Shown: piece by piece, positions 16,530 through 22,131 of the stretch
How the letters are laid out: each line of letters begins with the position of its first letter
How positions within the stretch are numbered: position 1 is the first letter of the stretch
From: Escherichia coli
GTDB taxonomy: Bacteria; Pseudomonadota; Gammaproteobacteria; Enterobacterales; Enterobacteriaceae
Reading direction: 5' to 3' (one strand)
Length of the DNA: 38,946 bases
Assembly (NCBI RefSeq): GCF_003334255.1
Contig: NZ_QOWU01000055.1
Notes under the pieces: model-generated
The model's input: only the letters and a program-made list of their open reading frames with translations
Database searches by the model: none
What the model was told of the DNA's origin: nothing
Program-made: the position numbers and the translations under genes

Positions 16530-16676
16530 CACGCTAGTATCGGCATAACCACTAAACACTCTAGCCTCTGCACCTGGGTCAACTGATACGGTGCTTTGGC
16601 CGTGACAATGCTCGTAAAGATTGCCACCAGGGCGAAGGAAGAAATGACTTCGCCTCCCGTATCTGGAAAGGTGTAC
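16530..16676 (+). ncRNA. Moco riboswitch (cis-regulatory RNA) in the moaA 5' leader
   Basis: Leader ends with GAAGGAAGAAATGACTTCGCCTCCCG just before the moaA start, as expected for the molybdenum-cofactor RNA motif. The 5' boundary is approximate and no structure was computed. Confidence 0.55.
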
Positions 16677-17666
16677 ATGGCTTCACAACTGACTGATGCA
16701 TTTGCGCGTAAGTTTTACTACTTGCGCCTGTCGATTACCGATGTGTGTAACTTTCGTTGCACCTACTGCCTGCCGGATGGCTACAAACCGAGCGGCGTCA
16801 CCAATAAAGGCTTTCTTACCGTCGATGAAATTCGCCGGGTTACGCGCGCCTTCGCCAGTCTGGGCACCGAAAAAGTGCGCCTGACAGGAGGAGAGCCGTC
16901 TTTACGCCGCGACTTTACCGATATCATCGCCGCTGTGCGGGAAAACGACGCTATCCGCCAGATTGCGGTCACAACCAATGGTTACCGTCTGGAACGCGAT
17001 GTGGCGAGCTGGCGCGATGCGGGACTTACTGGCATTAACGTCAGTGTCGACAGTCTGGACGCCCGCCAGTTTCACGCTATTACCGGGCAGGATAAATTCA
17101 ACCAGGTCATGGCAGGGATTGATGCTGCATTTGAGGCCGGTTTTGAGAAGGTCAAAGTCAATACCGTGCTGATGCGTGATGTTAATCATCACCAGCTCGA
17201 CACCTTTCTGAACTGGATCCAGCATCGCCCTATCCAGCTGCGTTTCATCGAACTGATGGAAACGGGCGAGGGCAGCGAGCTCTTCCGTAAGCATCACATC
17301 TCTGGTCAGGTTCTGCGTGACGAGCTACTGCGTCGCGGCTGGATCCACCAATTACGTCAACGCAGCGACGGTCCCGCGCAAGTCTTTTGCCATCCAGATT
17401 ACGCCGGAGAGATTGGCCTTATCATGCCGTATGAAAAAGACTTCTGCGCCACTTGCAACCGCCTGCGCGTTTCCTCCATTGGTAAACTCCATCTCTGCCT
17501 GTTTGGTGAAGGCGGCGTTAACCTGCGCGATCTGCTGGAAGACGATACCCAGCAACAGGCGCTGGAAGCGCGTATTTCAGCGGCGCTGCGGGAGAAGAAA
17601 CAGACCCATTTCCTGCATCAAAACAACACCGGTATTACGCAAAACTTATCGTACATTGGCGGCTAA
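16677..17666 (+). CDS. moaA: GTP 3',8-cyclase (molybdenum cofactor biosynthesis protein A, radical SAM)
   Basis: ORF track frame 16596..17666; ATG at 16677 ([31 protein letters not shown]) giving 329 aa. Confidence 0.95.
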
Positions 17667-18927: not shown

Positions 18928-19380
18928 ATGGCAGAAACCAAAATTGTTGTTGGTCCGCAGCCGTTCAGCGTAGGAGAAGAGTACCCGTGGCTGGCGGAGC
19001 GTGACGAAGACGGTGCGGTAGTCACCTTTACTGGTAAGGTGCGCAACCATAACCTGGGCGACAGCGTCAACGCATTAACCCTCGAACACTATCCGGGGAT
19101 GACTGAAAAAGCACTGGCAGAAATTGTTGATGAAGCGCGTAACCGCTGGCCGCTGGGGCGCGTCACTGTGATTCACCGCATCGGGGAATTATGGCCGGGC
19201 GATGAAATCGTTTTTGTCGGTGTCACCAGTGCGCATCGCAGCAGTGCGTTTGAAGCCGGGCAGTTTATTATGGATTATCTCAAAACCCGCGCACCGTTCT
19301 GGAAGCGCGAAGCCACGCCGGAAGGCGACCGCTGGGTTGAAGCTCGGGAGAGCGATCAGCAGGCGGCAAAACGCTGGTAG
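18928..19380 (+). CDS. moaE: Molybdopterin synthase catalytic subunit
   Basis: 150-aa ORF starting 2 bp after moaD. Confidence 0.93.
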   Translation: MAETKIVVGPQPFSVGEEYPWLAERDEDGAVVTFTGKVRNHNLGDSVNALTLEHYPGMTEKALAEIVDEARNRWPLGRVTVIHRIGELWPGDEIVFVGVTSAHRSSAFEAGQFIMDYLKTRAPFWKREATPEGDRWVEARESDQQAAKRW

Positions 19381-19390
19381 TTTTTTGTTA

Positions 19391-19418
19391 GCCGGATAAG
19401 GCACCGCTGCGTCCGGCA
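19391..19418. repeat. REP-like palindrome after moaE (likely operon 3' stem-loop)
   Basis: GCCGGATAAGGCACCGCTGCGTCCGGCA, preceded by a T6 tract directly after the moaE stop. Confidence 0.5.
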
Positions 19419-19516
19419 ATTTCACCGCTCAGTACATACGTTTACGCTGCGTCGATGCACAGCCTCATCATTTTGCAGTATCCTTAAGATATTCCTTATA
19501 TCTTCAGGAGATCGTC

Positions 19517-20221
19517 ATGGACAGATTCCCACGTTCTGATTCAATCGTACAACCCCGGGCTGGCTTGCAAACTTATATGGCTCAAGTCTATGGCTGGATG
19601 ACCGTTGGCTTGTTGCTGACCGCATTTGTTGCCTGGTATGCGGCTAATTCCGCGGCCGTGATGGAGCTGTTGTTCACTAACCGTGTCTTTTTAATCGGTC
19701 TGATCATCGCGCAATTAGCATTGGTTATTGTGTTATCAGCGATGATTCAAAAGCTGAGCGCAGGTGTAACGACGATGCTCTTTATGCTTTATTCGGCGCT
19801 GACGGGTCTTACGCTTTCCAGTATATTCATTGTCTATACCGCTGCTTCTATCGCCAGTACTTTCGTCGTTACTGCCGGGATGTTCGGCGCAATGAGCCTG
19901 TACGGTTACACCACGAAGCGCGATTTAAGTGGCTTTGGCAATATGCTGTTTATGGCGTTAATCGGCATTGTGCTGGCATCGCTGGTCAACTTCTGGTTGA
20001 AAAGCGAAGCATTGATGTGGGCAGTTACCTACATCGGCGTGATTGTCTTTGTCGGATTGACGGCGTATGACACGCAGAAACTGAAAAATATGGGTGAGCA
20101 GATTGATACCCGCGACACGTCGAACCTGCGCAAATATTCCATTCTTGGCGCGTTAACCTTGTATCTGGACTTCATCAACCTGTTCCTGATGTTGTTGCGG
20201 ATCTTCGGCAACCGCCGTTAA
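19517..20221 (+). CDS. ybhL: BAX-inhibitor-1 (TMBIM) family inner membrane protein
   Basis: 234-aa multi-TM ORF; family resemblance. Confidence 0.85.
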   Translation: MDRFPRSDSIVQPRAGLQTYMAQVYGWMTVGLLLTAFVAWYAANSAAVMELLFTNRVFLIGLIIAQLALVIVLSAMIQKLSAGVTTMLFMLYSALTGLTLSSIFIVYTAASIASTFVVTAGMFGAMSLYGYTTKRDLSGFGNMLFMALIGIVLASLVNFWLKSEALMWAVTYIGVIVFVGLTAYDTQKLKNMGEQIDTRDTSNLRKYSILGALTLYLDFINLFLMLLRIFGNRR

Positions 20222-20239
20222 TTCTTTTTCACCATCACT

Positions 20240-20267
20240 ATCCCGGCCATGTGTCGGGATTTTTTTC
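20240..20267 (+). terminator. Rho-independent terminator of ybhL
   Basis: Stem ATCCCG/CGGGAT with 9-nt loop followed by a T-run (20260-20266), 19 bp after the ybhL stop. Confidence 0.7.
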
Positions 20268-20425
20268 TTACTAAAAACGACACTTAACAAGTACCAGGTA
20301 TAAAATATGCCTTATGGACGAGCGGAAGCGTTTTCTGTATCCATAAATGCAAAAGTATTTTGTATGCGTGGTTTTAAATTTATTGATGGTGAATATTAAT
20401 ATTTTTTCTAAGGATAACTAAAAGA

Positions 20426-21139
20426 ATGGAATCATACTCGCAAAACAGCAATAAATTAGATTTTCAGCACGAGGCCAGGATATTAAACGGTATATGGCTC
20501 ATTACCGCTTTAGGTTTGGTGGCAACCGCAGGACTAGCCTGGGGAGCTAAGTATCTCGAAATTACGGCAACCAAATATGATTCACCACCAATGTATGTCG
20601 CCATAGGGTTATTATTACTTTGTATGTATGGCTTAAGTAAGGATATCAACAAGATAAATGCCGCCATCGCGGGCGTAATATATCTGTTTTTACTCTCTTT
20701 GGTGGCGATTGTCGTTGCAAGTTTAGTTCCTGTATATGCCATTATCATCGTGTTCAGCACTGCGGGCGCGATGTTTTTAATCAGTATGCTGGCCGGTTTA
20801 TTATTTAATGTTGATCCTGGTTCTCACCGTTTTATCATTATGATGACGTTGACAGGGTTGGCCCTGGTAATCATCGTGAATGCGGCATTAATGAGTGAAC
20901 GGCCCATTTGGGTAATAAGTTGCTTAATGATTGTGTTATGGTCAGGCATTATCTCGCATGGACGAAATAAGCTCCTTGAATTGGCGGGGAAATGCCATAG
21001 TGAAGAGTTGTGGAGTCCGGTTCGTTGCGCTTTTACAGGTGCATTAACACTCTATTACTATTTTATCGGCTTCTTTGGGATACTTGCCGCGATAGCTATA
21101 ACGCTTGTCTGGCAAAGGCATACGCGTTTTTTTCATTAG
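20426..21139 (+). CDS. ybhM: Inner membrane protein, BI-1/YccA-like paralogue of YbhL
   Basis: 237-aa multi-TM ORF; visibly AT-rich with many TTA/ATA/AAT codons compared with its neighbours. Confidence 0.8.
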   Translation: MESYSQNSNKLDFQHEARILNGIWLITALGLVATAGLAWGAKYLEITATKYDSPPMYVAIGLLLLCMYGLSKDINKINAAIAGVIYLFLLSLVAIVVASLVPVYAIIIVFSTAGAMFLISMLAGLLFNVDPGSHRFIIMMTLTGLALVIIVNAALMSERPIWVISCLMIVLWSGIISHGRNKLLELAGKCHSEELWSPVRCAFTGALTLYYYFIGFFGILAAIAITLVWQRHTRFFH

Positions 21140-21174
21140 CCGTAAATGCACATACTAAAGAACTTAACTAAACT

Positions 21175-22131
21175 TCACATCGCCGCTTCATTTTTCGCCC
21201 GTAGCTTCTTCGCCTGGCTTTCCAGCAACAGGTAACAGATCAGCGCCAGCAGCAGTGGGATAAAGTAATACAGCACACGGTAAGCGAGTAGGGCGGCGAT
21301 AATTGTACCTTTGGAGGTATGCTCCCCAGCCAGTAGTGCGATAAACACCGCTTCCAGCACACCGATCCCCGCCGGAATATGCACGATGACGCCAGCAATA
21401 CTACTAACCAGTAACACGCCCAGTACAAAGAAATAGTTCACGCTTTGACCAAGTAACAGCCAGATAATCGCCCCCATTACCATCCAGTTAACGCTGGAAA
21501 TCAGCATCTGAGCGAGGGCGAATTTCCATGAAGGCAGCACCAGCTTTTGCCCTTTGATGGTCATATGGCGGTGCTTCGCGAAAGCGCAAAACCACAAATA
21601 AACCGCGATAATCATCAGTAAGCCAATGCCGAGAATACGCAGCGTAGTTTGATCGACATACCAGTGATCCGGCAACTCCACCACGCCTGCGGTAAAGATA
21701 ATCCCTGCCAGTAAAATGTAGCCCAGCCAGTTGGTGGTAATACTGAGCGAGAAAATCCGCGTAATAGTGCTACCGGGCAACCCCAGACGAGAGTACAAAC
21801 GATAGCGCATACCAATGCCGCCGACCCAGGTACTGAGCGTCAGGTTGAAGGCGTAGCAGATAAACGACACCAGCATCACCTGGCGCTTCGCCAGTTTGTG
21901 ACCGCAGTAAAAGCGGGCGAGCAGGTCATAGCAGCCGTAAATCAGATAGCTGACGACCACCAGCCCGACCGCACTAAGCAGCGCAACGCGATTGTAGTCG
22001 CGGATGACCTTCCAGACCTCTTCCCAGTCCACTTTTTTGGCGTAGACCACCAGCAACACAATCACCGCGATAAAAAACAGCCAGGTGAGGATCTTCTTTG
22101 CTAAGCGCCAGCGCGGGTGTGATTTACTCAT
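21175..22131 (-). CDS. ybhN: Inner membrane protein, MprF-flippase-like (UPF0104/LPG-synthase TM) family
   Basis: 318-aa multi-TM ORF; start overlaps the clsB stop (TGATG). Confidence 0.8.
   Translation of the reverse strand: MSKSHPRWRLAKKILTWLFFIAVIVLLVVYAKKVDWEEVWKVIRDYNRVALLSAVGLVVVSYLIYGCYDLLARFYCGHKLAKRQVMLVSFICYAFNLTLSTWVGGIGMRYRLYSRLGLPGSTITRIFSLSITTNWLGYILLAGIIFTAGVVELPDHWYVDQTTLRILGIGLLMIIAVYLWFCAFAKHRHMTIKGQKLVLPSWKFALAQMLISSVNWMVMGAIIWLLLGQSVNYFFVLGVLLVSSIAGVIVHIPAGIGVLEAVFIALLAGEHTSKGTIIAALLAYRVLYYFIPLLLALICYLLLESQAKKLRAKNEAAM

Follow-up and report, generated by a model that had tools for sequence, protein, structure and literature searches.

The ybhL-ybhM locus and its products

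We analyzed a 38,946-nucleotide stretch of Escherichia coli DNA (contig NZ_QOWU01000055.1; called the window here), with attention to the adjacent genes ybhL and ybhM near its middle. The window is a K-12-type chromosome segment running from ybhH to ybiX, 99.9 to 100% identical to K-12 derivatives, and K-12-type records annotate both YbhL and YbhM as "Bax inhibitor-1/YccA family protein." A first-pass annotation, made from the letters alone, had described the pair as tandem paralogues of the BAX inhibitor-1 (BI-1) type separated by a terminator and an AT-rich spacer of about 200 bp. This layout held exactly: the genes occupy 19517-20221 and 20426-21139, both products match Pfam family PF01027 over the full model, and the intervening 204 bp, at about 37% GC, contain an 8-bp stem followed by seven T residues. 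The parts of the locus are as follows.

19456..19484, plus strand: putative sigma-70 promoter of ybhL, TGCACA-17-TATCCT, in the moaE>ybhL spacer (placed by sequence reading)
19517..20221, plus strand: ybhL, canonical BI-1/TMBIM protein of 234 amino acids (open reading frame [ORF] and Pfam Bax1-I match)
20222..20425, plus strand: ybhL-ybhM spacer, 204 bp, AT-rich (GC about 0.37), reported H-NS binding region
20240..20267 (hairpin 20240-20260), plus strand: intrinsic terminator of ybhL, 8-bp GC-rich stem, 5-nt loop, T7 (from folding)
20277..20304, plus strand: putative sigma-70 promoter of ybhM, ACGACA-16-TATAAA (consensus scan and SELEX-chip promoter list, PMC3946193)
20410..20414, plus strand: candidate Shine-Dalgarno-like AAGGA, 11 nt 5' of the ybhM ATG (suggested by sequence reading)
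20426..21139, plus strand: ybhM, divergent BI-1 paralogue of 237 amino acids (ORF and Pfam Bax1-I match)
21175..22131, minus strand: ybhN, LPG_synthase_TM family, convergent, the conserved right boundary of a variable interval (annotation and comparison)

The ybhL terminator hairpin has a folding energy of -11.6 kcal/mol (z = -3.0 against shuffled sequences) and is kept in E. coli alleles and in other Escherichia loci (L084, L002, and L003), and weakly in Salmonella. Windows of 300 bp across the spacer have 37% GC, versus 52.5% for the whole window. The consensus scan read the putative ybhM promoter differently, with an 18-nt spacer and TAAAAT. A scan of 19300-21300 against Rfam at a permissive threshold matched no known RNA family. 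The spacer also holds a 24-codon ORF (MQKYFVCVVLNLLMVNINIFSKDN) at 20347-20421, which stops 4 nt short of the ybhM ATG and is probably a chance frame, as it is broken by a 1-nt indel in the E. coli allele L086.

YbhL matches the Pfam Bax1-I model with an E value of 1.1e-62 (model positions 1-207), and YbhM with 1.1e-20 (positions 3-205 of 207). The two proteins share 25% identity over 151 amino acids (BLASTP E value of 1e-12), so that sequence comparison identifies ybhL and ybhM as real but very distant paralogues. YbhM had no match in an NCBIfam scan, no match by phmmer against PDB chains, and no significant match in a fold search. Its AlphaFold2 model (pLDDT 89.4, pTM 0.84) predicts seven helices.

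The paralogues differ at the residues that give the family its functional signature, which we take to be a di-aspartate pH sensor in transmembrane segments (TM) 6 and 7, D171 and D195 in YetJ of Bacillus subtilis; these YetJ residues are reportedly those described by Chang and colleagues in 2014. Residues 34-231 of YbhL align with YetJ structures (4pgr and others, E value of 1e-8), and both sensor aspartates are kept, as D185 (in AYDTQK) and D218 (in LYLDF), with the YD and LYLDF motifs of YetJ conserved. In YbhM, the alignment places G179 and Y212 at these positions, and both aspartates are gone. Other members of the YbhM-like subfamily have at most one acidic residue at the two positions, and none has both. 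What they share instead are motifs absent from canonical BI-1 proteins (IW.LTA.G.W.TAG.AW, NPGS, and AR.LY..EF.TL.RC), the last of which includes an almost invariant cysteine (Cys201). By homology, then, YbhM is classed as a BI-1 family member that lacks the di-aspartate signature, a feature missed in the first-pass annotation. Having lost both sensor aspartates, it probably does not work as a pH-gated Ca2+/H+ leak. YbhL, by analogy with YetJ and with YccA of E. coli, probably serves as a pH-sensitive cation leak or in membrane homeostasis.

Composition, silencing, and distribution of ybhM

We compared the composition of ybhM with that of the 36 annotated genes lying fully inside the window and with that of 204 ORF-called K-12 genes, which include four 50-kb samples of the same chromosome. 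Weights for the codon adaptation index (CAI) were taken as those attributed to Sharp and Li (1987). At a GC content of 0.426, ybhM is the lowest of the 36 window genes (z = -4.6) and falls at the 6th percentile of the 204 K-12 ORFs. Its GC content at third codon positions (GC3), 0.454, is the second lowest in the window and the 15th percentile in the larger set; ybhL has a GC3 of 0.617. The CAI of 0.156 is at the 1st percentile and the share of rare codons, 16%, at the 97th. Thus, the earlier observation that ybhM is AT-rich and uses rare codons proved correct, and its statistics fall outside the normal range, with a deviation from the genome that is moderate for GC3 and strong for CAI. Other genes in the same tail of composition are those of the CPS-53 prophage, yhhZ-yrhA, the yad fimbrial genes, and evgAS/emrKY. 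Within the window, GC3 is lowest in ybhH (392-1444), at 0.439.

One could suppose that this AT-richness is an artifact of encoding a hydrophobic membrane protein. First codon positions are indeed AT-rich in both paralogues (GC1 of 0.433 in ybhM and 0.451 in ybhL, both in the lowest 5%) because both proteins are hydrophobic, and GC2 is 0.391 in each; the real ybhM signal therefore lies in synonymous sites and codon choice. There, the GC3 of 0.454 stands against 0.617 in ybhL and a mean of 0.62 among 26 membrane-like ORFs, a subset in which ybhM has both the lowest GC and the lowest CAI, and the noncoding spacer is AT-rich as well. The synonymous-site statistics refute the artifact, which we regard as scarcely credible.

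H-NS-type silencing, which the first-pass annotation had proposed as one reading of the composition, is correct and already known from published data. Genomic SELEX (systematic evolution of ligands by exponential enrichment; Shimada et al. 2014) places an H-NS site and a constitutive sigma-70 promoter in the ybhL>ybhM spacer; the moaE>ybhL promoter is in its list as a constitutive RpoD promoter, with no H-NS mark in that spacer (PMC3946193). In the data of Forrest et al. (2022), ybhM rises about 9-fold in a delta-hns strain (log2 fold change [log2FC] of 3.15, P = 1.9e-17), is 58% AT, is listed as "horizontally acquired: yes," and belongs to the H-NS-bound gene set, and ybhL has a log2FC of 0.20 (P = 0.57), 51% AT, and the entry "no" for horizontal acquisition (PMC8894471). 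Chromatin affinity precipitation sequencing of K-12, SE11, and SE15 (Higashi et al. 2016) flags ybhL as H-NS bound (S2 Table, PMC4720273), which suggests that binding spreads leftwards from the spacer. In an O157 strain on lettuce, ybhM was up 4.6- to 5.1-fold at day 5 (PMC6891304). At the left end of the window, ybhD, ybhH, and ybhI are also in the H-NS-bound list, with log2FC values of 2.0 to 3.1 in the delta-hns strain (PMC8894471), and look like a second silenced patch.

The two paralogues have very different distributions. YbhL was found in 80 of 80 Enterobacterales loci scanned at one genome per species (71 to 100% identity) and its gene in 5425 of 5426 E. coli genomes. In about 35 other enterobacterial genomes, among them those of Citrobacter, Enterobacter, Klebsiella, Trabulsiella, Lelliottia, Pantoea, and Erwinia, the ybhL/ybhN junction has no ybhM, and the 3' end of ybhN lies 50 to 100 bp from ybhL. 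A word-index search of 5.8 billion proteins returned YbhM matches at 68% identity or more, of which those with a named source were all from Escherichia or Shigella. When 1.84 billion cluster representatives were searched exhaustively with phmmer, relatives beyond the Escherichia cluster and its fragments were only 25 to 35% identical; these clusters are mostly named Escherichia, Salmonella, Kluyvera georgiana, Pseudocitrobacter, and Superficieibacter, and a few are unnamed metagenome sequences. A profile search of the 5.8-billion-protein set was dominated by E. coli alleles and gave new members only in Phytobacter and Pseudocitrobacter. We found no phage copies of ybhM, and the "plasmid" matches were mislabeled chromosomes or chromosome fragments. 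One locus labeled E. coli (SCPM-O-B-8794, L002) is about 92.5% identical to K-12 over 8.7 kb from moaA to clsB, which on sequence evidently makes it another Escherichia species; it has a clean empty site without ybhM and keeps the ybhL terminator. Thus, ybhM is an accessory gene limited to Escherichia and lies outside the enterobacterial core. A gene named "ybhM" in Salmonella (STM14_0938) has a product only about 27 to 31% identical to E. coli YbhM; the name implies an orthology unsupported by sequence, and the gene is not to be treated as an orthologue.

Within the genus, ybhM tracks its surroundings. The flanks of the Escherichia lineage L084 are 94 to 96% identical to K-12 and its ybhM is 92% identical, and in E. 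albertii the values are 90% and 87 to 88%. Because ybhM and its flanks diverge in the same rank order, vertical inheritance from the genus ancestor follows. The first-pass reading is supported in part by the phylogenetic distribution: ybhL is core and ybhM confined to Escherichia, and the gene was already present in the ancestor of that genus.

The rate at which ybhM changes sets it apart from its neighbors. Its ratio of nonsynonymous to synonymous divergence (dN/dS) ranges from 0.10 to 0.64 and is mostly 0.2 to 0.35, with a dS similar to that of neighboring genes. In ybhL and ybhN, the ratio is at most 0.06 (0 to 0.03 in ybhL, which is under strong purifying selection), as it is in moaE and clsB apart from one moaE pair, whose 0.29 stems from one nonsynonymous versus one synonymous change. 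The dN/dS of ybhM is thus about 10 times that of its neighbors. Alleles 90 to 95% identical to K-12 make up 23% for ybhM versus 3% for ybhL. At least 80% of ybhM is present in one piece in 4788 of 5426 E. coli genomes, so that it is disrupted or missing in about 12%, with hits by IS1, IS5, and IS200 insertion sequences (IS) and by IS-mediated deletions. Variable sites cluster in the N-terminal tail (14/18), the 128-133 loop, and TM5 (17/21), with stronger conservation of TM1, TM2, TM6, and TM7 and little variation in the short loops predicted to be periplasmic. The pattern is consistent with relaxed purifying selection; it is neither that of a pseudogene nor obviously that of an outward-facing arms race.

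A variable array of paralogues beside ybhL

Comparison of loci revealed what the first-pass annotation had missed, namely, that the ybhL-ybhM pair of K-12 is one state of a variable array. The number of paralogues beside ybhL is 0, 1 (as in K-12), 2 (in 14% of E. coli), or 3, and K-12 retains the middle copy of an A-ybhM-C array, where A and C are our labels for the adjoining genes. The arrangements are as follows.

E. coli, 750 of 5426 complete genomes (14%): ybhL - A - ybhM - ybhN
Other Escherichia lineage (L084, flanks 94-96% identical to K-12): ybhL - A - ybhM - C - DUF3969 - 73-aa ORF - ybhN
E. albertii: ybhL - EptA-like gene - ybhM remnant - C - DUF3969
Salmonella: ybhL - paralogue - 202-aa ORF - 186-aa ORF - ybhN
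K. georgiana: ybhL - paralogue - ybhQ
Pseudocitrobacter and one metagenomic contig: one to three paralogues interleaved with small ORFs
Phytobacter: ybhL - paralogue - ybhN, the paralogue with a host-like GC3 of 0.76
Salmonella guaA island (L093 / L094, 4600-10700): module of a BI-1-like gene and two Sip4-like genes

All relatives of YbhM that could be placed adjoin ybhL on its downstream side, with the exception of a second Salmonella module (238, 203, and 184 amino acids) in an island downstream of guaA. Its position there indicates that cassettes can move. The guaA island also carries genes for TsiV, a transposase, a Sel1-repeat protein, DUF1266, and a DjlB-type protein. A query of gene C and DUF3969 matched 29 E. 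coli genomes, with more than 80% of the query covered in only one. Between types, subfamily members share 20 to 44% identity (median, 29%), versus 84 to 87% for YbhL between the same genera, and the subfamily is monophyletic in 170 of 200 neighbor-joining (NJ) bootstraps. The GC3 of the paralogue lies 0.13 to 0.34 below that of the adjacent ybhL in all genera except Phytobacter. On these sequence comparisons, the YbhM-like proteins form a small monophyletic subfamily restricted to the Enterobacteriaceae, and such a sensor-less, fast-evolving, copy-number-variable BI-1 subfamily tied to ybhL appears to be undescribed in the literature we searched.

In E. albertii, a 553-amino-acid ORF of 37% GC (L003, 5063-6724) lies between ybhL and the ybhM remnant and resembles EptA/CptA phosphoethanolamine transferases (NCBIfam E value of 1e-41, far below the cut-offs). 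Part of the K-12 spacer is 72% like the sequence upstream of this remnant. The 204-bp K-12 spacer was considered as a possible remnant of gene A, which we rejected, since the alignment is limited to the terminator and the ybhM-proximal parts. The convergent ybhL/ybhN gap also holds unrelated insertions of 0.8 to 3.4 kb in Pluralibacter, Silvania, Siccibacter, and Kosakonia (by locus comparison, L028 4706-8100, L016 4709-6750, L038 4706-5460, and L032 4706-5650), which suggests that insertions favor this site in general.

The genes that travel with the Salmonella paralogues point to a possible context. Four partner proteins of a four-TM type, from the two loci, match the NCBIfam model NF053812 (Sip4) over almost its whole length, with E values of 8e-8 to 3e-4 and scores of 21 to 34 bits versus a curated cut-off of 240. 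Sip4 is a four-TM inner membrane immunity protein to the pore-forming effector Ssp4 of the Serratia type VI secretion system (T6SS) (PMC12669606). A relationship between the two partner types is probable (hhalign, 82%), and a search with the partner proteins returned Salmonella sequences only. That the partners might be derived from BI-1 or related to the YbhM-like proteins was rejected (hhalign, 0.2 to 2%), and YbhM itself does not match the Sip4 family. A TsiV gene lies near the module in the guaA island, and one array ORF has a weak MafI-immunity-like match. None of the loci examined had an effector gene next to it. YbhM and nine island partners were compared with PADLOC and PHROGs and had no relevant match in either, Pfam recognized only DUF3969 among the island partners, and our literature searches found nothing linking BI-1 to immunity and nothing on DUF3969. 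In a transposon sequencing screen of P. fluorescens, moaC was the only gene found to confer modest resistance to Ssp4 when lost (PMC12669606). The Salmonella Sip4-like genes lie just downstream of the moa operon, and a link to the moaC result is probably coincidence.

Two further elements were noted in the window. A REP-like palindrome (GCCGGATAAGGCACCGCTGCGTCCGGC) lies at 19391-19417 between moaE and the ybhL promoter, from sequence reading, and similar elements occur in the Citrobacter ybhL/ybhN spacer. A molybdenum-cofactor riboswitch is annotated 5' of moaA (window 16545-16689) in the matching RefSeq record (L001, 17146-17290).

Origin and role of ybhM

We consider it probable that ybhL is a core gene that keeps the sensor and that ybhM, found only in Escherichia and silenced by H-NS, is a copy left from a variable array of fast-diverging paralogues, most likely formed by local duplication. 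The paralogy, the composition, the distribution, the variation of the array, the evolutionary rate, and the loss of the aspartates were each observed directly, and H-NS binding and de-repression of ybhM are taken from the literature. In the sequence of events we envisage, a ybhL-like gene would have been duplicated in tandem downstream of ybhL, and the duplicate would then have lost its sensor aspartates. Relaxed or partly diversifying selection on it, with drift towards AT, would have followed. The array beside ybhL, of none to at least three copies, gains and loses members over time. H-NS binds the AT-rich promoter region, so that ybhM is kept transcriptionally silent in laboratory growth and is expressed only on relief. 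YbhM would then be a conditionally expressed, dispensable inner membrane protein, perhaps with a protective or modulatory role, a suggestion we make with low confidence. The duplication origin, the cause of the AT-richness, and the biochemical role of ybhM are the points that we infer.

Several observations weigh against this account. Tandem duplication of ybhL is favored by position and not by the tree: the YbhM-like clade groups with enterobacterial YbhL in 0 of 200 NJ bootstraps, distances to canonical BI-1 proteins are saturated (above 2.2), and no sister group is resolved. A single YbhM query scores two unrelated canonical BI-1 proteins above YbhL; with a subfamily hidden Markov model, E. 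coli YbhL is among the three best of about 60 canonical sequences. Databases of horizontal transfer flag ybhM as acquired, the fuller Escherichia island contains genes of 30 to 36% GC that look truly foreign, and the Salmonella copy in a different island indicates that cassettes move. Finally, variation within Escherichia falls in the cytoplasmic N-terminal tail and TM5 and not in the periplasmic loops, which does not favor an outward-facing arms race as the source of diversification.

Acquisition from outside is the alternative that the first-pass annotation had put forward, and we hold it to be possible, though on the unlikely side: ybhM, or the whole A-ybhM-C-DUF3969 island, would have come from an AT-rich donor outside the Enterobacteriaceae and inserted into the ybhL-ybhN interval of the Escherichia ancestor, with H-NS silencing it ever afterwards. 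The low GC, low CAI, and many rare codons of ybhM speak for it, as do its absence from sister genera, its listing as horizontally acquired and H-NS bound (PMC8894471), the 30 to 36% GC of the island partners, the three-gene Salmonella module at two loci, and the missing link to YbhL in the NJ tree. What survives of the claim is that ybhM is non-core and flagged as acquired; the foreign source is its less likely part. No donor emerged; nothing exceeds 35% identity among the 1.84 billion representatives, and the named relatives are all Enterobacteriaceae; chance would hardly bring a foreign BI-1 gene to rest beside a resident one in five or more genera; integrase genes, tRNA genes, and flanking repeats are all missing from the examined junctions; the searches for plasmid and phage copies found none; and the Phytobacter copy has a host-like GC3. 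Because the relatives adjoin ybhL and none above 35% identity lies outside the Enterobacteriaceae, local duplication is at least as strongly indicated. A duplicate could also simply be decaying, ybhM being a functionless silenced relic nearing loss with a composition set by AT-biased mutation without selection. The roughly 12% of E. coli genomes without an intact copy, the recurrent IS insertions, the many truncated YbhM protein clusters, the elevated dN/dS, the lost sensor residues, and the silencing would all suit such a relic. We nevertheless think it unlikely, as dN/dS values of 0.1 to 0.4 still mean purifying selection, the 237-amino-acid frame has been preserved between E. albertii (88% identity) and E. 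coli and is intact in 88% of genomes, the subfamily motifs and Cys201 persist at 20 to 35% identity, and ybhM is induced on lettuce (PMC6891304).

An immunity-type role would account for the array in another way. YbhM-like proteins would be orphan self-protective inner membrane proteins directed against membrane-targeting interbacterial toxins, such as pore-forming T6SS effectors, colicins, or contact-dependent inhibition ionophores, acting for example as YbhL decoys or blockers of pore insertion, and the array, its divergence, and its patchy distribution would be the outcome of an arms race. Such a role is suggested by the variability of the tandem arrays, in which multi-pass paralogues have diverged deeply and small ORFs of unknown function accompany them, by a Salmonella paralogue followed by two Sip4-like proteins at two different loci, by the role of Sip4 itself against the pore-forming Ssp4 (PMC12669606), and by the nearby TsiV gene and the weak MafI match. 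Against it, the Sip4 scores are far under the cut-off and Pfam is silent, the examined loci lack an adjacent effector and K-12 ybhM lacks partner genes, PADLOC and PHROGs gave no match, dN/dS is below 1 with variable sites mostly cytoplasmic or in TM5, and no link from BI-1 proteins to immunity turned up in the literature searched. We judge this role quite improbable. The same low standing applies to its fullest form, a speculation in which YbhM-like proteins would be an unrecognized class of BI-1-derived, sensor-less proteins in orphan arrays that protect Enterobacteriaceae against membrane-depolarizing toxins, with Sip4-like partners in Salmonella and K-12 ybhM as the silenced remnant of a defense island.

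For K-12, the two annotated BI-1 genes and the AT-rich, acquired-flagged, H-NS-silenced state of ybhM were already public. Comparison adds that a core gene produced or attracted a lineage-restricted, hypervariable array of paralogues without the signature sensor. The co-traveling Sip4-like genes offer a concrete, testable lead to function and a mere hint of a protective role. The locus is also a clean natural case for asking whether AT-richness and H-NS binding mark foreign origin or relaxed selection on a local duplicate.

Four known systems help to place the pair. Orphan immunity arrays of the Sip4 type resemble the YbhM-like arrays in that both are tandem arrays of variable content, are made up of small or membrane proteins, and lack a cognate toxin. 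The YbhM-like proteins are unrelated to their Sip4-like partners, no effector is nearby, and K-12 has no partners; the YbhM-like arrays are at most candidate members. YetJ is the solved bacterial BI-1/TMBIM protein, a pH-sensitive Ca2+ leak channel; YbhL shares both motif aspartates with it, and YbhM shares the Pfam family and the predicted seven helices, unlike YetJ in having glycine and tyrosine in place of the two aspartates. E. coli YccA is a BI-1 homologue that is both a substrate and an inhibitor of FtsH/HflKC (PMC9379554; PMC7876416). It belongs to the same Pfam family and organism as YbhL and YbhM, and yccA lies outside the window; the earlier statement that family members modulate FtsH-dependent proteolysis is borne out for YccA only. 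FtsH uses the N-terminal tail of YccA, and in YbhM this tail is the most variable segment (14/18 sites). Finally, like the H-NS-silenced, xenogeneic-type genes of K-12, ybhM is AT-rich, low in CAI, H-NS bound, about 9-fold de-repressed, narrowly distributed, and frequently hit by insertion sequences. Unlike them, it carries no mobile-element signature and its closest relatives adjoin a resident paralogue, and its AT-richness may be secondary.

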